Assembly (NCBI GenBank): GCA_016205145.1
Contig: JACQJH010000002.1
Location: forward strand, 360,001 to 392,000
Reading direction: 5' to 3'
From: Candidatus Iainarchaeum sp.
GTDB lineage: Archaea; Iainarchaeota; Iainarchaeia; Iainarchaeales; JACQJH01
DNA length: 32,000 nucleotides
The notes under the pieces were generated by a model that saw only the letters and a program-made list of their open reading frames with translations, was not told where the DNA came from and made no database searches. A program made the translations under genes and the position numbers. Positions 266 to 30,907 of this stretch are shown piece by piece (positions within the stretch are counted from its first letter, which is position 1; each line of letters starts with the position of its first letter).

Positions 266-2122
266 CTATTTGAGCAGTTTGGCGAATTTTTCCCCGAGCT
301 GCTTTGCGTCGGCCTTTCCGCGCAGTTCGCGCATCGCCAATCCGACCAGGAAGTTCAAGGCCTTTTCCCCGCCATTTTTGTAGTCTGCCGCGGCGGCAGG
401 GTTTGCCGCGACAACCCTTGCTATTGCCGCATCAACATCCCCCGAGCCGGCGTCCTTCAGCAAATCGTTCTTTTTGAGGAAATCCAGCGGCTCGGCTTTT
501 TCATTGACGTACGCAATCATCGCTTCCTTGGCGTTCTTTTCTGAAACTTTTCCCTGTTCGAGCAGGCGCAGTAGCCCCGCAATCTTGGCTGGTTCAAGGT
601 TCAGCCGCTTCAGGTCTAGGCCCGAGCGGTTTGCGATTGCAAGAAGCTCGCGAGTCAGGAAAGAGGCTGCAAGCTTTGGCTCAACGCCTTTCGCTGTTTC
701 CTCGAACAGCCTTCCAAGCGTTGCGTCGGATGAAAGCACTTTTGCCGTATAATCGTCCAATCCGAATTCCCTGCCGAAGCGCCCCGCCTTATTGGAATGC
801 AGTTCCGGCAGGCCTTTCTTGATTTCATGCAGTTCCGCTTCCAAAACAACGGTTTTGACCAGGTCGGAATCAAAAATATAGCCGTAGTCGTCCTCGGTTT
901 CCTTCAGCCTCAGCCTTTTCGTCACAAGGCCTTTCTCGTCAAACGACCTTGTTTCCCTTTCAACTTTTTTCCCCGCTGACAGAACCTTTCTCTGCCTCGC
1001 AATCTCGAATTCTAGGGCCTTTTCGACAAACCGGAAGCCGGAAATGTTCTTGACTTCGACGCGCTCGGAACCCTCGATTGAGGCGTTCGAATCGACTTTC
1101 AAAGTGTTCTTTCCCTGCTCGAAAACTTCCAGGTATTCGAGCATTTTGAGCAGTTCGTCCAGGAATTCGCGCGTTTCCTCCGGCTTTCCGAAATCCGGTT
1201 CCGTGACAATCTCGCACAGCGGAATGCCGGAACGGTTGTAGTCGATAAGGGAATAGGCCGAGCCGTGAATGCCGCCCTCGTGCACCAATGCCGCGGGATC
1301 CTCTTCCAGGTGGATGCGCCTTATGCGGATGGTTTTGCCGGATGGCAGCTTTACACTGCCGTTCTCCCCGACCGGAATCTCGAACTGCGTTATCTGGTAG
1401 TCCTTCGCCAGGTCGGGATAAAAGTATGTCTTGCGGCTGAAAAAAAATTCATTGTTGACCCTGCAGCCCAGTGCAAGGCAAAGCTTCAATGCAAAGTCGA
1501 CGGCTTTCCTGTTCAGGACCGGCTTGCTGCCCGGCATGCCAAGACAGGTTTCACAGCAATGCGAATTCGGCTCAGCTTCGGCAGTGGAACAGCCGCAGAA
1601 AAGCTTTGACTGCGTGTCCAGCTGCACGTGCACTTCTAGGCCCATGACTGGCGCGGGCCCGGAAACCTGTTCAACCGAATAATTGTCAACTGCATTGAGC
1701 AGTTTTTGCGGCGCAATTATTATGCCCGCGGTTTCAATTCCGGCATTGAAGCTTATCTCATTGTTTGAAAACAATGGTTTGTCGAAAATTTTTTTCACGC
1801 CATCAATCACGGGCGGGACGAGGCCTACAACGCAGCCGGTGTGCTTTTCGACTTCCTCGGAACTTGCAAGCCGGACAAGCTTTGCATTCGCGATTTGCAC
1901 CAGCCTTTTCTCGTCAACGCTCCGGTCACCGGACAGGACAACCAGCAACGGCTTTCCGTCCACGATGTACAGCAGGGTCTTGGCAATCTGCCTGAGCTGC
2001 ACGCCCCTGACACGCGCACTGTCAACCGGTTTCCTGGCGGGCGCGTGCTCCAAAAACCTGAACTGCAGGCCTTTGCCTTCAAGCCAGCCTTTCACCCATG
2101 CGCCCTGCTTCTGCCCTTGCAT
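266..2122 (-). CDS. gatB: Asp/Glu-tRNA amidotransferase subunit B fused to an N-terminal YbaK/ProX-type aminoacyl-tRNA deacylase domain
   Basis: 618-aa ORF with ATG at 2120-2122. Residues ~160-618 are GatB: MGLEVHVQLDTQSKLFCGCS, and a YqeY-like tail NFLVGLAMRELRGKADAKQL. Residues 1-~155 look like the YbaK/INS editing fold: IAKTLLYIVDGKPLLVVLSGDRSVDEKRL and HTGCVVGLVPP. There is no stop codon between the two parts. Confidence 0.9.
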   Translation of the reverse strand: MQGQKQGAWVKGWLEGKGLQFRFLEHAPARKPVDSARVRGVQLRQIAKTLLYIVDGKPLLVVLSGDRSVDEKRLVQIANAKLVRLASSEEVEKHTGCVVGLVPPVIDGVKKIFDKPLFSNNEISFNAGIETAGIIIAPQKLLNAVDNYSVEQVSGPAPVMGLEVHVQLDTQSKLFCGCSTAEAEPNSHCCETCLGMPGSKPVLNRKAVDFALKLCLALGCRVNNEFFFSRKTYFYPDLAKDYQITQFEIPVGENGSVKLPSGKTIRIRRIHLEEDPAALVHEGGIHGSAYSLIDYNRSGIPLCEIVTEPDFGKPEETREFLDELLKMLEYLEVFEQGKNTLKVDSNASIEGSERVEVKNISGFRFVEKALEFEIARQRKVLSAGKKVERETRSFDEKGLVTKRLRLKETEDDYGYIFDSDLVKTVVLEAELHEIKKGLPELHSNKAGRFGREFGLDDYTAKVLSSDATLGRLFEETAKGVEPKLAASFLTRELLAIANRSGLDLKRLNLEPAKIAGLLRLLEQGKVSEKNAKEAMIAYVNEKAEPLDFLKKNDLLKDAGSGDVDAAIARVVAANPAAAADYKNGGEKALNFLVGLAMRELRGKADAKQLGEKFAKLLK

Positions 2123-5280: not shown

Positions 5281-7071
5281 TCAGGCCTTATCCTTTTTGC
5301 CCGGAAGGCCTTCTTCGAGGTCGAGCTTTATGCTCAGCTCTTTGAGTTGCCTTGCACTGACTTCGCTTGGCGCGTTGTCCATCATTGAAATGCAGGCCTT
5401 GTTTTTCGGAAAGGCTATCACTTCGCGGATGCTTTCGTTGCCTGTAACCATTGCAACCAGCCTGTCAAGGCCGAAGGCTATTCCACCATGCGGCGGGGCG
5501 CCGTATTTGAAGGCTTCCAGCAAAAAGCCGAATTTTTTCTGCGCATCCTCCCGCGATATTTTGAGGATGTCGAAGATTTTTGACTGCAGTTCCTGCGAGT
5601 AAATCCTGAAACTGCCGCCGCCGAGCTCGACGCCGTTCACTGCAAGGTCGTACGCCATTGCCTTTGCCTTTTCCGGAGACCTGTCAAGCAAAGCTATGTC
5701 CTCTTTTCTCGGCGAAGTGAAAGGGTGGTGCATGGCATTCCACCTCTGCTCTTCCTCGCTCCACTCGAACATCGGAAAATCGGTTATCCAGACGAATTTG
5801 AAGTCATCGGGTTTCACAAGCTTCAGTTCATCGCGCAAATGCAGCCTTAACGCGGACAATGAATCGGAAACGATTTTTTCCGGCCCCGCGACAATGAGCA
5901 GGAGGTCGCCTTCCTTTGCCTGCAGTTTTTGTGCGATTGCATCCAGGATTTTTTTGTCAAAAAACTTTGAAACCTGCGAGTCCAATCCTTCCCTGGTGAC
6001 CTTTGCAGTAACGAGGCCTTTTGCCTTGAAGACTTTCGCCGTTTCCTCGAGTGTTTTAAGCTGGGATTTTGAAAAGTTTGCGCAGCCGCTTGCATTGATG
6101 CCCTTCACTTTGCCGCCGTTGCGCAGAATGCTTTTGAATACCTCGAAATTGCCTTTGCCTGCTTCCTCTGAAATGTCCGCAAGCTCGAGGCCGAACCTTG
6201 TGTCCGGCTTATCGCTTCCAAACCTAGACATTGCCTCGTCAAAGGTCATGCGCGGGAAAGGCGTTTTCACGCCGATTCCGAGCGAGGTTTTCCAAACGGC
6301 TTTCACCATGCCTTCCATTATTGAAAAGAATTCCTCGCGCTCGGGAAACGACATTTCCAGGTCGATTTGCGTGAATTCCGGCTGCCTGTCCGCCCTCAAA
6401 TCCTCGTCGCGGAAGCATTTTGCGACCTGGAAATAGCGGTCGAAGCCTGCAACCATCGACAACTGCTTGAACAGCTGCGGACTCTGCGGCAGGGCAAAAA
6501 ACTTTCCGGCATGCACCCTGCTCGGAACAAGATAGTCGCGCGCTCCCTCCGGAGTCGACTTCGCCAGGACAGGGGTTTCGATTTCAATGAAGCCCAAAGC
6601 GTCAAAATAGTCCCTGACTGTTTTCACTACGCGGTGCCGCATAATGAGGTTTTTCTGCATTTCCGGCTTGCGCAAATCCAAATAGCGGTATTTCAGCCGC
6701 ATGTCCTCGTTGACAGGAATCCTTGACTCGATCGGAAAAGGCAGTGCCTCGCTTTCGTTCAGTATTTCAACGGTGTCGGCGACGATTTCAATGCGGCCCG
6801 TCGGAATTTTCGGGTTTTCCGTGCCATTCGGCCGCTCCGCGACCGTTCCCTGCACTGAAACGACAAACTCGTCTTTCAGCTTTGCCGCAACTTCATGCGC
6901 CTTTTTGTTCACTTCGGGATTGAAGACGACCTGCGTTGTCCCGTACCTGTCGCGCACGTCAACAAAAGTGAGGCTGCCGTGGTCGCGCCTCGTTGCAATC
7001 CAGCCGTTCAAAACGACCTTCTTGCCCACGCTTTTTTCGTCAAGCCCGCCGCAGGTATGCGTCCGTTTCAT
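5281..7071 (-). CDS. aspS: Aspartyl-tRNA synthetase, bacterial-type (with GAD insertion domain)
   Basis: 596 aa with FALPQSPQLFKQL, FRDEDLRADRQPEFTQID, SDKPDTRFG, FVWITDFPMFEW, HHPFTSP and GGIAFGLDRL. The length and the large insertion between motifs 2 and 3 are the bacterial architecture. Confidence 0.9.
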   Translation of the reverse strand: MKRTHTCGGLDEKSVGKKVVLNGWIATRRDHGSLTFVDVRDRYGTTQVVFNPEVNKKAHEVAAKLKDEFVVSVQGTVAERPNGTENPKIPTGRIEIVADTVEILNESEALPFPIESRIPVNEDMRLKYRYLDLRKPEMQKNLIMRHRVVKTVRDYFDALGFIEIETPVLAKSTPEGARDYLVPSRVHAGKFFALPQSPQLFKQLSMVAGFDRYFQVAKCFRDEDLRADRQPEFTQIDLEMSFPEREEFFSIMEGMVKAVWKTSLGIGVKTPFPRMTFDEAMSRFGSDKPDTRFGLELADISEEAGKGNFEVFKSILRNGGKVKGINASGCANFSKSQLKTLEETAKVFKAKGLVTAKVTREGLDSQVSKFFDKKILDAIAQKLQAKEGDLLLIVAGPEKIVSDSLSALRLHLRDELKLVKPDDFKFVWITDFPMFEWSEEEQRWNAMHHPFTSPRKEDIALLDRSPEKAKAMAYDLAVNGVELGGGSFRIYSQELQSKIFDILKISREDAQKKFGFLLEAFKYGAPPHGGIAFGLDRLVAMVTGNESIREVIAFPKNKACISMMDNAPSEVSARQLKELSIKLDLEEGLPGKKDKA

Positions 7072-13257: not shown

Positions 13258-14553
13258 ATGGCAAACGGCACGATAAAAGTCGGCCTGATCGGCTTCGGCA
13301 CGGTCGGGGCAGGTGTATACAGGCTTCTCACTGAAAAGAACGCCAAGCTCTCCGAGAGGATCGGCACAGGGCTCGAAGTGAAAAGAGTCTGCGTGAAAAA
13401 CGGGTCGAAAAAGCGGCCGGTCGACATTCCAAAGGAACTGCTTTCAACCGATTTCAGGGAAATAATCTCCGACCCCGAAATCGACATTGTCGTCGAGGCG
13501 ATCGGCGGCACGACCGACGCGAAAAAAATCTTTGACGGCGCAATCGCGAACGGCAAGCACATCGTTACAGCCAACAAGGCGCTGCTTGCCGAACAGGGCT
13601 ACGGGATTTTCAGGAAGGCTAAGGAAAAAAACGTGCTCATAGGCTTTGAGGCGTCCGTCTGCGCCGCTGTTCCGATCATAAAGGTTTTGCGCGAAAGCCT
13701 TGTCGCAAACGACATTCAGTTCGTCCACACCATAGTCAACGGCACGTGCAATTACATTCTCACGAGAATGTCCGAGGACGGCATGGACTTTGCCCAGGCA
13801 CTGAAGCTGGCGCAGGAAAAAGGCTTTGCGGAAGCCGACCCGAAACTTGACATTGACGGAAGCGATTCCGCGCACAAGCTGGTGCTTTTGGCCCTCACAG
13901 CGTTCGGCGCGCACATCACGGAAAAAGACATCCTGAAGGAAGGCATCACGCAGATAACGGAAAGGGACATAGAGTACGCGAAAGAGCTTGGTTACACTAT
14001 AAAGCTATTGGCAATCCTGCACAACAACGCGGGAAAGCTTGAGGCGAGAGTGCATCCGACGCTTCTGCCGAAAGACCACATGCTTGCCGACATCCGCAAC
14101 GAGTTCAACGCCATTCAGGTGAAAGGAGATGCGTGCGGCAGCCTGCTGTTTTCCGGAAAAGGGGCGGGCATGATGCCGACAGCTTCCGCAATGGTTTCAG
14201 ACATAGTCGAAATAGCGAAAAAGATCGCACGGCATGCCGTGAGAAGCGAATCGATAAAGTTCGACTCGATGAAGCTTGAAGGGCTCGACGAAATGGAGAC
14301 AAGGCATTACCTTCGCTTTACGGTCGTGGACGTTCCGGGTGTCATGGCAAAAATCTCCAAAACCCTGGGCGACAGCGGCATAAGCATTGCATCTATAATC
14401 CAGAAGGAAAGGTACGGCGAAGGCGAAGTAGTGCCGGTAGTGCTGACAACGCATGCCGCAAGCGAGAAAAAAATAGGCGAGGCGCTCAGGCAGATCGACA
14501 GGCTCGACTGCATAAAGGCGAAAACATTCAGGATAAGAATGATAGAATCATAA
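13258..14553 (+). CDS. hom: Homoserine dehydrogenase with C-terminal ACT domain
   Basis: 431 aa with IKVGLIGFGTVGAGVYRLL, ANKALLA, GFAEADPKLDIDGSDSAHKL and a C-terminal ACT-like region (RFTVVDVPGVMAKISKTLG). Confidence 0.9.
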   Translation: MANGTIKVGLIGFGTVGAGVYRLLTEKNAKLSERIGTGLEVKRVCVKNGSKKRPVDIPKELLSTDFREIISDPEIDIVVEAIGGTTDAKKIFDGAIANGKHIVTANKALLAEQGYGIFRKAKEKNVLIGFEASVCAAVPIIKVLRESLVANDIQFVHTIVNGTCNYILTRMSEDGMDFAQALKLAQEKGFAEADPKLDIDGSDSAHKLVLLALTAFGAHITEKDILKEGITQITERDIEYAKELGYTIKLLAILHNNAGKLEARVHPTLLPKDHMLADIRNEFNAIQVKGDACGSLLFSGKGAGMMPTASAMVSDIVEIAKKIARHAVRSESIKFDSMKLEGLDEMETRHYLRFTVVDVPGVMAKISKTLGDSGISIASIIQKERYGEGEVVPVVLTTHAASEKKIGEALRQIDRLDCIKAKTFRIRMIES

Positions 14554-14555
14554 AA

Positions 14556-14654
14556 AGCCGGTTTCGTCCGGCTGGTCCGAAACCAAGGCTTATTGCCGAT
14601 GCAATAAGCCGGGTAAGGCAATAGGCCATAAAAGCGCGCTACGAGATTCGTAGC
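14556..14654 (+). repeat. Intergenic modular hairpin element, copy A (box + H1 + H2 + H3)
   Basis: AGCCGGTTTCGTCCGGCTGGT (14556-14576) is identical to 23884-23904. H1 is GGTTTCG (14560-66) / 11-nt loop / CGAAACC (14578-84). H2 is GGCTTATTGC (14587-96) / CGAT / GCAATAAGCC (14601-10). H3 is GCTACGA (14638-44) / GAT / TCGTAGC (14648-54), followed by an A6...T6 stretch. The element starts 3 nt after the hom stop. Confidence 0.8.
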
Positions 14655-17601: not shown

Positions 17602-19086
17602 ATGGCGGATTTTGACAGGTTTGAACAGCCAGCCTATTCGGATGACTTGGGCGGGCAGGAAGAGGGGCAAAAGCCGCTGGACATTGTGACGAAAAACCTC
17701 GGCAAAATCATTGCAATAATCGCCGTGCTCGCCATAGCCTATTTCGCCTACGATTTTTTCGCCGGCAGCATGAGAAACATCACCATAACCGCGGTCGACT
17801 CCGAAAAAAACATTGTCGAGCCGGACAGCATGCAGTTGTCCGATGAATCAGGAAAAGCGGTTCTGCCTGGCGCAGGACAGGGCAATTCCTTCCGCGTGCG
17901 CAAGGGAACTTACACAGTCGCAATAACGGCGCAGGGTTTCAAGCCATTCCGCGACACCATCTCAATCGAGAATGACGGCGAAATACAATTGGTTTTGCCA
18001 AAAGACATCAGGGTTTCAATCGAAAGCGTCCTGCTTGACGAGACAAGCATCCGGGCCGGCCAGACCGTCGCCGGAACAATTTCGCTGGAAAACAAAGGCG
18101 ACAAGCCCGCGGAAGTAGAGCTTTTGCTGCCGGAGCTTGACAAAAAGCCCATTGAAGGCGTCGAAATTTCAATCGAGCCTTCAAAGCTCTCCGTCCCCGC
18201 AAAAGGAAAAGCCGAAGCGGCAATTTCGATAACCATCTCGGATACAATCAAAATCAAGAACGCCGCTTCCGGCGACGACAAGCAAACTAAAATCCAGGTG
18301 CGGTTCACGAACTCAACCGCAACCCTCGCGTTCAAGGTTGTGCCCAAACTCAACATAGGTTTTGCAACGGCAAAAATCAGTTTCGGCAGGATGAGGGCAG
18401 GCGCGAACAGTTCAAAGGAAATCCAGATAAAGAACGGCAACAATTATCCCGCCAAAAACCTTTCGCTTTCGCTTGAAATCGCAGGCTCCGCGAACAGGGA
18501 TGCCGAAGGCTGGTTCACTTTCATAAAAGGCCAAAAAATCGATTCCATTGATTCGAAGGGCACTTACTCCGACCAGCTCAGGGTCGACGTGCCGATAACC
18601 GCCAAAAAGGAAACCATCAACGGCCTCATAGTGCTGAGCGGTGAAAGCCTCGACAGGCCCATCAAGGCCGAGCTCCTGATTGAAATTGCGGACGAAGCGA
18701 AAATCGATTTGGCGTATTCGATTCAGACAAGCGTATACAGTGTGAAATGGCTTGAAGCCCAGCAGAAATACGAGGAAAAAACCGCGAGCTTCAGCCTGAA
18801 GAACGACAGCGACCTGGACATCCAGAACATACAGGTTTTCGTCAAAAACCCCGGCGACTGCACAGTCGAATGGCTCAAGCTGACAGAACCGCTCATAACC
18901 GAAATCAAAAAGGGCGAGACTAAAACAGTTTACTTCACGGCAAGCGCGCCCACCGGAGTGAGGGGCACGATAGAGGAAGTCAACGGCCAGAACTGCAGGC
19001 TCGGCTACAAGTACGAGAATCCCCTGACGCACGCCGACGAAGAGGAAGAAATCGACAAGCTGGTGCAAATCAATCCAAGCGGGTGA
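17602..19086 (+). CDS. Membrane-anchored multi-domain surface protein (Ig-like / CARDB-like beta-sandwich repeats)
   Basis: 494 aa. ATG with GGTG 5 nt upstream. A short acidic cytoplasmic N-terminus precedes one TM segment (IIAIIAVLAIAYFAYDFFA). Several ~90-110-aa beta-rich modules follow, e.g. TVAGTISLENKGDKPAEVELLL and IQIKNGNNYPAKNLSLSLEI. No enzymatic motif is evident. Confidence 0.75.
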   Translation: MADFDRFEQPAYSDDLGGQEEGQKPLDIVTKNLGKIIAIIAVLAIAYFAYDFFAGSMRNITITAVDSEKNIVEPDSMQLSDESGKAVLPGAGQGNSFRVRKGTYTVAITAQGFKPFRDTISIENDGEIQLVLPKDIRVSIESVLLDETSIRAGQTVAGTISLENKGDKPAEVELLLPELDKKPIEGVEISIEPSKLSVPAKGKAEAAISITISDTIKIKNAASGDDKQTKIQVRFTNSTATLAFKVVPKLNIGFATAKISFGRMRAGANSSKEIQIKNGNNYPAKNLSLSLEIAGSANRDAEGWFTFIKGQKIDSIDSKGTYSDQLRVDVPITAKKETINGLIVLSGESLDRPIKAELLIEIADEAKIDLAYSIQTSVYSVKWLEAQQKYEEKTASFSLKNDSDLDIQNIQVFVKNPGDCTVEWLKLTEPLITEIKKGETKTVYFTASAPTGVRGTIEEVNGQNCRLGYKYENPLTHADEEEEIDKLVQINPSG

Positions 19087-19091
19087 AAGAC

Positions 19092-19484
19092 ATGCCTGAA
19101 GACATGAGAATCCATCTGCTCAACCTCATAAACTGGGAGCGCGGAAAACACGGTTTGCCGCCATTACAGTTGGATGAAGGGCTTGCGCACGCAGCAAAAG
19201 CCCATTCGGAACACGACATAGACCAGCCGGGACTCGCCCACGCGCCGGAACATCTCCGCCCAAACGTGCTCGAGAACGTCGCTTCGTATGAGTGGCGCGG
19301 ACCGCACAGTCAACCATTCGAGCCATGGCAGATAGCCGAAAAAATAGTCCAGCTGTGGATGGACAGCCCCAGCCACAGGGCAGCAATGCTTGACCCCCAC
19401 ATAACCCATGTCGGCGCCGACATCGCGCACAGGCACCTGGAAAACAACAAAAGAAAAATCCATGCAACCGCAAGATTCAGGTAA
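19092..19484 (+). CDS. CAP/SCP (YkwD-like) domain protein without an evident signal peptide
   Basis: 130 aa from ATG 19092, with GGTGA 5 nt upstream. The alternative start is GTG at 19083, which forms a GTGA overlap with the upstream stop. Motifs NLINWERGKHGLPPLQLDEGLAHAAKAHSEH and WMDSPSHRAAMLDP match the CAP-domain pattern. Confidence 0.7.
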   Translation: MPEDMRIHLLNLINWERGKHGLPPLQLDEGLAHAAKAHSEHDIDQPGLAHAPEHLRPNVLENVASYEWRGPHSQPFEPWQIAEKIVQLWMDSPSHRAAMLDPHITHVGADIAHRHLENNKRKIHATARFR

Positions 19485-19521
19485 AACAGACGCTTGACGT
19501 TTTATACAAAATAGATTACTC

Positions 19522-19572
19522 GGCGTATTGCAACTGCAATACGCCTTAGTTTCGCTCCACGCAGCCGAAACT
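19522..19572 (-). repeat. Intergenic modular hairpin element, copy B (H2 + H1, inverted relative to copy A)
   Basis: GGCGTATTGCA-AC-TGCAATACGCC (19522-45), TT, then AGTTTCG (19548-54) / 11-nt loop / CGAAACT (19566-72). Read on the minus strand it aligns with 14560-14616: same H1-AA-H2 order, same 11-nt H1 loop length, and stem differences that are paired. Confidence 0.75.
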
Positions 19573-19587
19573 GCGTAGCCGTTGCGA

Positions 19588-19609: not shown

Positions 19610-19620
19610 CCAAAATCCTA

Positions 19621-19677
19621 AGGCAGATGGGTATTGCAATTGCAATACCCGTCGCGCACCAGCCGGGCGCGACGGCT
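19621..19677 (-). repeat. Intergenic modular element, copy C, abutting the 3' end of tRNA-Thr
   Basis: The minus strand reads AGCCG-TCGCGC-CCGGCTGGTGCGCG (plus 19653-19677). Next comes the perfect 22-nt palindrome GGGTATTGCAATTGCAATACCC (19629-19650), then A-TCTGCCT (19621-19627). An alternative 8-bp hairpin is CGTCGCGC / ACCAGCCGG / GCGCGACG (19650-19674). Confidence 0.8.
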
Positions 19678-19749
19678 AGCCCCGAGAGGGATTTGAACCC
19701 TCGGCCACTCGCTTACGAAGCGAGTGCTCTACCGCTGAGCTACCGGGGC
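19678..19749 (-). tRNA. tRNA-Thr (anticodon CGU)
   Basis: GCCCCGG-TA-GCTC-AGCGGTA-GAGC-A-CTCGC-TTCGTAA-GCGAG-TGGCC-GAGGG-TTCAAAT-CCCTC-TCGGGGC-T. All four stems pair (one G-U in the acceptor stem). 72 nt, no encoded CCA, no intron. Confidence 0.9.
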
Positions 19750-19801: not shown

Positions 19802-19823
19802 TTTTTTTGCAATGGCAAAAAAA
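19802..19823. terminator. Perfect palindromic hairpin between glyS and tRNA-Thr
   Basis: TTTTTTTGC-AATG-GCAAAAAAA: a 9-bp stem flanked and built from T/A runs, so it reads as hairpin plus U-run on either strand. It lies about 30 nt downstream of the glyS stop. Confidence 0.45.
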
Positions 19824-22518: not shown

Positions 22519-23199
22519 ATGCTTTTTTTGGTGGTTGCCTTGGATGAAATTTTTGAAGGCGTTTTCTCGGACAACAGGAAAATTTTCACCAAAACAATGG
22601 AGAGGGAAAGCGTTTACGGCGAAAGGCTCGTCGAAGACGGGGGGTGCGTTTACCGCGAATGGGTTCCGTTCAGGAGCAAGCTTGGGGCAGCGATAAAAAA
22701 CGGCCTCAAGGAACTGCCCGTCAAAGCCGGCTCGAACGTGCTTTACCTTGGAAGCTCCGAGGGCACGACGCCGAGCCATGTTTCAGACATCATAGGCGAA
22801 AAAGGCATTCTTGTGGGCGTTGAAATCAGCGAAAGGCCCATGAAAAAATTCATTGCAGTGTGCGAGTCAAGGCAGAACGTGCTTCCCGTGCTGGCGGACG
22901 CAAACAAGCCGCAGGATTACGCGGAATACCTTGAAGGCGTTCCCGTGGACGTGCTGTACCAGGACATTTCCCAGAAAAACCAGGCGGAAATATTCAACAA
23001 AAACGCGAAAGCATTCCTCGCAAAAGGAAAACACGGCCTCATTGCAATCAAGGCGCGCAGCATTTCGCAAAAGAACAGCGTGAAAAAAATTTTCGAGGAA
23101 CAGGTTTCCGAACTCAAAAACGAATTCGAAATAATCCAGGAAATCGCTCTCGAACCATTCGAAAAAGGGCACCTCATGGTTTTATGCAGGAAAAAGTGA
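22519..23199 (+). CDS. flpA: Fibrillarin-like rRNA/tRNA 2'-O-methyltransferase
   Basis: 226 aa with VYGERLV, REWVPFRSKLGAAI, VLYLGSSEGTTPSHVSDI, VEISERPM, ADANKP and VLYQDISQKNQAEI. It starts 18 nt after nop5. Confidence 0.9.
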   Translation: MLFLVVALDEIFEGVFSDNRKIFTKTMERESVYGERLVEDGGCVYREWVPFRSKLGAAIKNGLKELPVKAGSNVLYLGSSEGTTPSHVSDIIGEKGILVGVEISERPMKKFIAVCESRQNVLPVLADANKPQDYAEYLEGVPVDVLYQDISQKNQAEIFNKNAKAFLAKGKHGLIAIKARSISQKNSVKKIFEEQVSELKNEFEIIQEIALEPFEKGHLMVLCRKK

Positions 23200-23807: not shown

Positions 23808-23882
23808 GGGCGGGTAGCTCAGCTTGGATAGAGCAAGTGCCTCCTAAGCACTAGGTCGTGCGTTCGAATCGCACCCCGCTCG
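23808..23882 (+). tRNA. tRNA-Arg (anticodon CCU)
   Basis: GGGCGGG-TA-GCTC-AGCTTGGATA-GAGC-A-AGTGC-CTCCTAA-GCACT-AGGTC-GTGCG-TTCGAAT-CGCAC-CCCGCTC-G. 75 nt, no CCA, no intron. A TATA-like AAACTTAAACC lies about 26-37 nt upstream. Confidence 0.9.
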
Positions 23883-23883
23883 T

Positions 23884-23943
23884 AGCCGGTTTCGTCCGGC
23901 TGGTGCGCGTTGAGGGGCCTCGCTTTGCTCAGCCCCTCTGCCT
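23884..23943 (+). repeat. Intergenic modular element, copy D, 1 nt after the 3' end of tRNA-Arg
   Basis: AGCCG-GTTTCGT-CCGGCTGGTGCGCG (23884-23909), then hairpin GAGGGGC (23912-18) / 13-nt loop / GCCCCTC (23932-38), then TCTGCCT (23937-43, overlapping the stem end). The first 21 nt equal 14556-14576. The last 14 nt of the box equal the reverse complement of 19653-19666. Confidence 0.8.
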
Positions 23944-30812: not shown

Positions 30813-30832
30813 CGCATCCCAGGCCGCCACGC

Positions 30833-30898
30833 CCGGCCGGTGCGCGCCCGATTCCGCTGCGCTTCATCGGGCTGGCTCGCTTCGCTCGCAACTGCAAT
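30833..30898 (+). repeat. Degenerate copy (E) of the intergenic modular element
   Basis: CCGGCCGGTGCGCG (30833-46) matches the box core CCGGCTGGTGCGCG at 13 of 14 positions. A hairpin follows: GCCCGAT (30846-52) / 13-nt loop / ATCGGGC (30866-72). GCAACTGCAAT (30888-98) is identical to 19530-40 in copy B. Confidence 0.5.
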
Positions 30899-30907
30899 TT
30901 GCCAAAA

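Follow-up and report, generated by a model that had tools for sequence, protein, structure and literature searches.

The 32,000-nucleotide stretch of DNA analyzed in this study, hereafter called the window, carries a real, non-random and neatly structured family of repeats of a broadly familiar nature. Three full copies (modules A, B and C) and one to two partial ones are found in ~34 kb, corresponding to the window and 2.3 kb of its left flank, which is the part of the genome covered by our copy census. We interpret these copies, with a probability of about one half, as members of one lineage-specific, REP/PATE/MITE-like family of small palindromic repeats, interspersed, non-coding and ~50 to 75 nt long each. 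The modules occur after genes and tRNAs but are missing from the same sites of relatives, and a REP/MITE-like element is therefore the most likely explanation for them. The genes of the window, including those for aNOP56, fibrillarin and a dimeric GlyRS, are archaeal, and the host is an uncultured DPANN archaeon.

Organization of the modules

The module is composed of two overlapping 5' hairpins, H0 and H1, followed by a 3' hairpin, H2, built on TATTGC-N4-GCAATA, and by a tail, which is of two types, GRGTAA in A and B and TCTGCCT in C and R (Table 1). A previous sequence-only reading of this DNA had proposed the presence of two inverted copies, each with a 7-bp stem closing an 11-nt loop, an AA linker, a stem containing TATTGC...GCAATA and a final G(G/A)GTAA, and the direct reading of A and B confirmed this arrangement. 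In particular, the plus strand of A from 14560 to 14616 reads GGTTTCG tccggctggtc CGAAACC AA GGCTTATTGC cgat GCAATAAGCC GGGTAA, and the minus strand of B from 19572 to 19516 reads AGTTTCG gctgcgtggag CGAAACT AA GGCGTATTGC agtt GCAATACGCC GAGTAA. The two copies are inverted with respect to each other and align with 85% identity over 39 nt (E = 0.002), with all the differences in their stems compensated. H0 overlaps H1, the two being mutually exclusive, and corresponds to AGCCGG-TTTCGT-CCGGCT in A and to ACGCAG-TTTCGG-CTGCGT in B. In the window, TATTGC-N(0-8)-GCAATA occurs three times versus 0.00 expected, and GTTTCG-N(5-20)-CGAAAC occurs twice versus 0.11 expected.

Table 1. Coordinates of the modules and of associated features in the window. 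R1 is the covariance model built from modules A, B and C.
Feature	Position	Strand	R1 score (bits)	Description
Module A, complete	14556-14616	+	84.0	Starts 2 nt past the hom stop (14551-14553)
Parts of A	H0 14556-14573; H1 14560-14584; AA linker 14585-14586; H2 14587-14610; tail 14611-14616	+		Tail GGGTAA
Extra H2 3' arm	14618-14627	+		GCAATAGGCC (compare GCAATAAGCC); 7 nt past H2 of A; direct reading
Spacer hairpin	14638-14654	+		GCTACGA-GAT-TCGTAGC, then A-run and T-run; not repeat; conserved in sister locus L054, which is without A
Module B, complete	19516-19576	-	84.7	Inverted with respect to A
Parts of B	H0 19576-19559; H1 19572-19548; AA linker 19547-19546; H2 19545-19522; tail 19521-19516	-		Tail GAGTAA
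Module C, complete	19617-19677	-	56.2	Type 2
Parts of C	H1 equivalent 19675-19649; H2 19650-19629	-		H1 equivalent CCGTCGCGC ccggctggt GCGCGACGG; H2 is the 22-nt palindrome; tail ATCTGCCTTAGGA
tRNA-Thr (CGT)	19678-19749	-		3' end abutted by C
tRNA-Arg (CCT)	23808-23882	+		Followed by one base (T, 23883), then by R
Module R, partial, mosaic	23884-23941	+	11.3	R1 E = 0.18
Candidate decayed copy	30826-30905	+	7.3	Convergent intergenic spacer; weak, E = 0.024 and 0.56

The sequence-only reading had also pointed out a third H2-type hairpin, the perfect 22-nt palindrome GGGTATTGCAATTGCAATACCC at 19629 to 19650. The palindrome is indeed present at this position, but, rather than standing alone, it is the H2 of the full module C, which on the minus strand begins with AGCCGTCGCGCCCGGCTGGTGCGCGACGGGTATTGCAATTGCAATACCC at the base right after the discriminator of tRNA-Thr. 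The stem of the first hairpin of C (CCGTCGCGC/GCGCGACGG) is wholly unlike that of A, and the core of its loop, CCGGCTGGT, is the same as in A. This core is common to A, C and the tRNA-Arg trailer, which makes the earlier description of the loops as poorly conserved only half true. Besides the third full copy, the link with tRNA 3' ends and the overlapping hairpin H0 are features that the sequence-only reading did not contain.

As for the boundaries, the element had been delimited to 14556 to 14654. The hairpin unit is real, and its start can be placed at 14556 (AGCCGG), 4 nt before 14560; the hairpin at 14638 to 14654, instead, lies outside the repeat and belongs to the ancestral spacer, because it is conserved in a sister genome lacking module A. 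The A-run and T-run sequence following this hairpin is probably a terminator and promoter region. The extra H2 3' arm located between A and the spacer hairpin could pair with the H2 5' arm of A via one G-T/G-U pair. Furthermore, an imperfect direct repeat of the form CATAAAA(A)GC, consisting of CATAAAAAGC (14549 to 14558) and CATAAAAGC (14627 to 14635), flanks A together with the extra H2 arm, and it may correspond to a target duplication, to microhomology or to chance.

The partial module R is a mosaic of the other copies. Its bases 23884 to 23904 are exactly the first 21 nt of A (AGCCGGTTTCGTCCGGCTGGT, 14556 to 14576), so that H0 is intact, and this 21-mer represents the longest exact repeat of the window (E = 5e-7). 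Past the 21-mer comes a C-like GCGCG, followed by a different 7-bp hairpin (GAGGGGC...GCCCCTC) and by the TCTGCCT tail in common with C; since R thus combines the H1 5' arm of A with the GCGCG segment of C, H1 cannot form in it. In the convergent spacer at 30826 to 30905, CGCCCGGCCGGTGCGCG is identical to C at 16/17 positions and is followed by a 7-bp hairpin and by GCAACTGCAAT, which corresponds to the H2 arm and loop of B; on the basis of this sequence resemblance, a decayed fifth copy is a possible, although weak, interpretation of this region. Overall, the copies diverge by paired changes or by changes of whole stems, and they are mosaic.

A perfect palindrome not assigned to the family, TTTTTTTGC-AATG-GCAAAAAAA at 19802 to 19823, lies between glyS and tRNA-Thr; it is scored as weakly H2-like by R1 (12.5 bits, E = 0.08) and looks like a bidirectional oligo-T terminator.

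Covariation and predicted folding

When A, B and C are aligned, H1 and H2 together comprise 17 pairs, which are 100% Watson-Crick, with zero G-U pairs; five of them differ between copies at both partners, and no pair does so at one partner alone. Deriving from three sequences, these figures are descriptive counts and not statistics. When the pairing partners are slid by one to three columns in the same alignment, pairing falls to 24 to 46%. Between A and B, three of the six pairs of H0 are likewise changed on both sides. The earlier statements that the stem differences are paired and that structure, not sequence, is conserved are thus borne out, every stem difference being compensated, including those of H0. 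The 6+6 core of H2 is unchanged in all three full copies and, in C, is part of a perfect 22-bp palindrome. It is clear that the hairpin potential has been kept and that the stem sequence is free to vary.

The modules fold with z scores of -3.3 to -5.6, as RNA or as DNA and on both strands; in particular, as DNA the two strands fold equally well (z = -4.4 to -5.6). Minimum-energy folding of the sense strand favors H0 over H1 and extends H2 by 3 bp (ACC/GGT in A and ACT/AGT in B). A second partner is available to the C/T closing H1 (14584 in A and 19548 in B), namely, the G/A located past H2 (14612 in A and 19520 in B); this base therefore shows a covariation that fits two alternative helices. 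The extended H0 of B makes use of G-U pairs only on the sense strand of the element. The equal DNA folding of both strands, together with the lack of wobble pairs in H1 and H2, speaks for a hairpin at the DNA level, or for the correction of one arm from the other, and against a strand-specific RNA.

Genomic setting and empty sites in relatives

The copies are found in both orientations, placed in the short space that separates the 3' end of a gene or tRNA from its oligo-T terminator. Module A is located between the hom stop codon and the spacer hairpin with the T-rich terminator/promoter region upstream of dapB; dapB starts ~110 to 130 bp downstream of it, the two lying in a lysine/threonine biosynthesis cluster, and A is in the sense orientation in the hom 3' flank. 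Module B lies between the stop codon of a YkwD-like gene (19083 to 19484, plus strand) and its T-run, where it is antisense, and it is downstream of tRNA-Thr on the minus strand. C is found between tRNA-Thr and a TTTT run, and R between tRNA-Arg and a TTTT run. Of A, B, C and R, which are the four clear copies, two are at tRNA 3' ends, and a function linked to tRNAs could instead be considered. No transposase, integrase or Y1/HUH gene was recognized among the open reading frames of the window.

In the sister genome, whose homoserine dehydrogenase is 88% identical, the hom-dapB spacer is without the ~50 nt of module A and keeps the TACGA...TCGTA hairpin, the T-rich region and the promoter region. 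In a relative, whose GlyRS is 75% identical, tRNA-Thr comes right after glyS, with TTTTT directly past the discriminator base, whereas at the same tRNA-Thr junction in the window 61 nt of C precede TTTT, C being followed by B. Since the T-run of the relative starts directly after the tRNA, an insertion ahead of the T-run must abut the tRNA, which partly explains the tRNA junctions. In the best-supported reading, the acquisition of the copies would postdate the divergence from the sister lineage.

In the same relative, tRNA-Thr (CGT) (L057, 11547 to 11630) presents a ~12-nt intron beside the anticodon, and the tRNA-Thr of the window is intronless. At L057 6648 to 7782, a gene for a PemK-type toxin and small open reading frames are found between an HTH gene and the gene for a 184-aa protein, where the window has tRNA-Arg and R; this spacer is therefore variable between lineages.

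Regarding the other genes of the window, the cluster containing hom comprises an aminotransferase gene, dapF, lysA, hom, dapB and dapA. The nearest non-self homologues of its homoserine dehydrogenase (13258 to 14553) are bacterial, with ~50 to 56% identity (NC10/Methylomirabilales, Omnitrophota and Deltaproteobacteria), and hom may have been horizontally acquired. The GatB/GatE-like amidotransferase subunit (266 to 2122, minus strand) has an N-terminal YbaK-type aminoacyl-tRNA editing domain (PF04073), which is missing from the orthologue of the sister (84% identical, 466 aa) and of many relatives. An exact 19-nt inverted repeat, TCGAAAATTTTTTTCACGC, is present at 1782 to 1800 and at 23078 to 23096, in the unrelated coding regions of the GatB-like gene and of fibrillarin; it is rich in A- and T-runs and probably compositional.

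Searches for further copies

The search of the window with R1 recovered only the three training copies, R being scored as reported in Table 1, and no copy was found with R1 in ~47 kb of DNA from the sister, from the relative and from the flanks nor, in particular, in the 2318 bases to the left of the window. Pattern searches were extended to larger collections. In one genome per GTDB species, AAAC-N-AAGG-NN-TATTGC-N3-5-GCAATA gave seven matches, all attributable to chance, in unrelated bacteria and with no H1. In the JGI metagenomes, the pattern AGCCGGTTTCGNCCGGCTGG gave 40 matches, all of them in high-GC DNA and unlike the module beyond the pattern, and four patterns (H0, H2, the H1-H2 junction and the H0 loop) produced chance matches only in the IMG/VR viral contigs. 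When copy A was used as a BLAST query against phages and plasmids, no match was returned. These empty scans mean either that the family is confined to its lineage or that the genome is absent from the collections; for the GTDB scan, the alternative to such an absence is that no other copy keeps the exact pattern.

With Rfam 15 at gathering scores, only the two tRNAs were identified in the window, and at E <= 5 no Rfam match started in, or was confined to, a module. A subthreshold match to YrlA (Y RNA-like) was observed at 23830 to 23934 (29.8 bits versus a gathering score of 69; E = 0.003), covering the 3' part of tRNA-Arg and the hairpins of R, and it is probably driven by the tRNA-like part.

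Assembly breaks as a hint of additional copies

The window is reproduced without differences in the Logan assemblies of three sequencing runs, whose contigs are nonetheless broken at the modules. All three runs have contigs whose first base is 14556, where A begins, and contigs whose last base is 19547, which is base 30 of B when 19576 is counted as base 1; the opposite ends of the module-broken contigs vary from run to run. We take these assemblies to have been built with k = 31, and a 30-nt (k - 1) overlap of contig ends at 6373 to 6402 is in line with this value. In a graph with k = 31, contigs that start at the first base of an element or stop 30 bases into it are to be expected when the same element is present behind another 5' flank, and thus the breaks at the 5' boundary of the modules suggest the existence of further copies elsewhere. 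The contig on the hom side stops at 14569, a position for which this graph logic does not account. Moreover, the contigs of two runs (L064 and L065) end at one and the same base just past GGAGGGGGTGCCCCCCTCC, an in-gene G/C-run hairpin 2318 nt to the left of the window, which seems to stop short-read assembly as well. Because of these shared ends, the argument from assembly breaks is suggestive and not a proof, loss of coverage at hairpins being the alternative.

Alternative explanations

Among the three candidates put forward by the sequence-only reading, namely, a structured RNA, a REP/MITE-like element and a palindromic binding site, the REP/MITE-like element best fits the empty orthologous sites, the occurrence in both orientations, the mosaic copies and the breaks at the module borders. 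If the modules were functional RNAs, acting as stem-loops of 3' UTRs and tRNA trailers against 3' exonucleases or in 3'-end processing, with H0 and H1 as alternative conformers, one could understand why every copy precedes the first oligo-T that follows a stop codon or a tRNA, where transcription is to be expected, and why two copies directly follow tRNAs, with B in the sense orientation for read-through from tRNA-Thr; the strong predicted folds, the compensatory changes in H0, H1 and H2 and the sense-strand G-U pairs of B would also be consistent with this view. However, the orthologous sites of the sister and of the relative are without modules, and therefore there is no conserved requirement for them; B has the antisense orientation with respect to the mRNA bearing it in its 3' flank, H1 is broken in R, H1 and H2 lack G-U pairs and fold equally on both strands, and Rfam offers no match confined to the modules, even at the permissive threshold. 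The origin of the copies would remain unexplained too, although the later exaptation of a mobile repeat for an RNA function would be compatible with these data. As the primary reading, a structured RNA is thus unlikely. We consider very unlikely that H2 (TATTGC-N4-GCAATA) is the operator of a dimeric DNA-binding protein and that the neighboring hairpins are incidental. The constancy of the 6+6 core in three copies, the perfect palindrome of C and the position of A upstream of dapB in the lysine/threonine cluster are what an operator would predict, but a dimeric protein does not need the arms to be kept complementary outside the core by paired changes, nor does it explain H0 and H1, which covary without a conserved sequence; furthermore, B and C are downstream of genes and of a tRNA, not at promoter sites, and the gene cluster of the sister, which is the same, lacks the site.

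The proximity to tRNAs also raises the question of whether the copies are remnants of the att sites of an integrative element or virus targeting tRNAs, considering that one of the two occurrences of the exact 21-bp direct repeat (14556 to 14576 and 23884 to 23904) is beside tRNA-Arg and that C abuts tRNA-Thr. This explanation is largely refuted and retains a minimal probability, as the repeat starts after the tRNA and includes no tRNA sequence, the tRNA is inside the 9.3-kb interval between the repeats instead of at its edge, the interval contains housekeeping genes (dapB, dapA, glyS, nop56 and fibrillarin), with glyS-nop-fibrillarin syntenic in the relative, and neither an integrase in the window nor a match in viral contigs, phages or plasmids was detected. 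Local template switching at quasi-palindromes, with correction from arm to arm and neither mobility nor function, would account for perfect Watson-Crick stems free of one-sided changes and for the extra tandem H2 3' arm of A. It leaves unexplained, however, the presence of near-identical modules at four or five loci, up to 16 kb apart and in both orientations, and the assembly breaks located exactly at the 5' boundary. Scarcely probable as an explanation of the whole, template switching can explain the perfection of the stems within the repeat-element reading, which it cannot replace.

Other candidates were examined and rejected. An integrated island bounded by the 21-bp repeat is ruled out by geometry, gene content and synteny. 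The copies do not represent a CRISPR array or a remnant of it, having no regular spacing (from 52 nt to 9 kb), being non-identical and occurring in both orientations. By eye, no C or D boxes, ACA boxes or pseudouridylation pocket of a C/D-box or H/ACA guide RNA are visible, and no T-run follows H2, as an intrinsic terminator would require.

Comparison with known repeat families

Small interspersed palindromic repeats have been much studied in bacteria and are scarcely described for archaea. REPs are present in tens to hundreds of copies per genome, and the gene for RAYT, a Y1 HUH enzyme, is flanked by REPs. The modules resemble the REP/BIME/REPIN-RAYT systems in being short extragenic palindromes that occur, in both orientations, between genes and their terminators, in having stems kept by paired changes and in their lineage-specific presence and associated assembly breaks. 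All the copies are intergenic, and H1 (25 nt) and H2 (24 nt) are within the range of the short (20 to 40 nt) extragenic palindromes of REPs. The definition of REPs includes a conserved unpaired GTAG (or CGTC) end tag and an organization in inverted pairs (PMC3733652). Different from REPs, the modules have no GTAG: G(G/A)GTAA follows H2 in A and B and is missing from C, and CGTC, rather than tagging an end, is internal to H0/H1 in A, C and R. The inverted pairs of like hairpins of REPINs and BIMEs are also absent, as H1 and H2 are unlike hairpins in tandem and B and C have the same orientation. Further differences are the overlapping alternative hairpins H0/H1, the archaeal host and the lack of a RAYT among the open reading frames of the window.

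PATEs and MITEs derived from IS200/IS605 have been described in haloarchaea (PMC3119063). Similar to PATEs, the modules are archaeal and non-coding, lack terminal inverted repeats and a clear target duplication (none is seen for B and C, and A has the imperfect CATAAAA(A)GC repeat at its flanks) and have hairpins at both ends; recognition as single-stranded DNA hairpins would explain why the stems are perfect on both strands. Different from PATEs, no conserved target tetranucleotide can be recognized, the left flanks being GGCT for B, GGCT for C, TCGT for R and AAAA for A. The modules are also shorter than the described PATEs known to us, and no TnpA or TnpB is known for the host genome. A classical MITE with terminal inverted repeats does not correspond to them either, since AGCCGG... 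at one end of the module is not complementary to ...GRGTAA or ...TCTGCCT at the other. Interchangeable submodules and stable stem-loops scattered intergenically are found in the pneumococcal BOX elements (boxA-boxB-boxC) and in the RPEs of Rickettsia as well, which, unlike the modules, are bacterial, unrelated in sequence and present in tens to hundreds of copies; we know of no mobilizing enzyme for BOX elements and RPEs. With two distinctive traits of REPs lacking and those of PATEs not being decisive, we assign the family to the broad class of small interspersed palindromic repeats and to neither REPs nor PATEs.

Possible mechanism and significance

We infer that the copies spread as DNA. 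By analogy with known systems, the most plausible route would be the recognition of single-stranded DNA hairpins by an enzyme acting in trans, for example, a HUH/Y1 transposase encoded elsewhere in the genome. The Watson-Crick stems would stay perfect either because the enzyme recognizes the hairpin or because hairpin-templated repair fixes one arm from the other. The surviving copies would then mark places where one more stable hairpin does no harm: the trailers of tRNAs would be cut off by RNase Z, and a 3' UTR may tolerate, or even profit from, a protective stem-loop.

In the literature searched, we found no report of a small interspersed palindromic repeat in DPANN archaea. It is possible to hypothesize, albeit as a distinctly unlikely case, an undescribed archaeal element inserting precisely at the 3' ends of tRNA genes or transcription units, before the oligo-T, in which H0 and H1, mutually exclusive and covarying independently, would be a conformational switch, used for mobilization or to free a small RNA processed from the trailer of a tRNA or mRNA; such an element would represent a new class of mobile elements or RNAs in DPANN archaea with reduced genomes. 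If, instead, the element is an ordinary one, the practical value of its identification is modest, and the modules should be annotated as repeats, not as riboswitches or operators.

The replacement of entire Watson-Crick stems, together with the two overlapping hairpins that both covary, would offer a clean test case for distinguishing selection from hairpin-templated repair. A repeat family of this kind would also account for the recurrent breaks in the short-read assemblies of the host organism. Finally, the presence or absence of the modules between close relatives, in a small and streamlined genome, would suggest that a mobilizing activity is, or has recently been, active in this archaeon.
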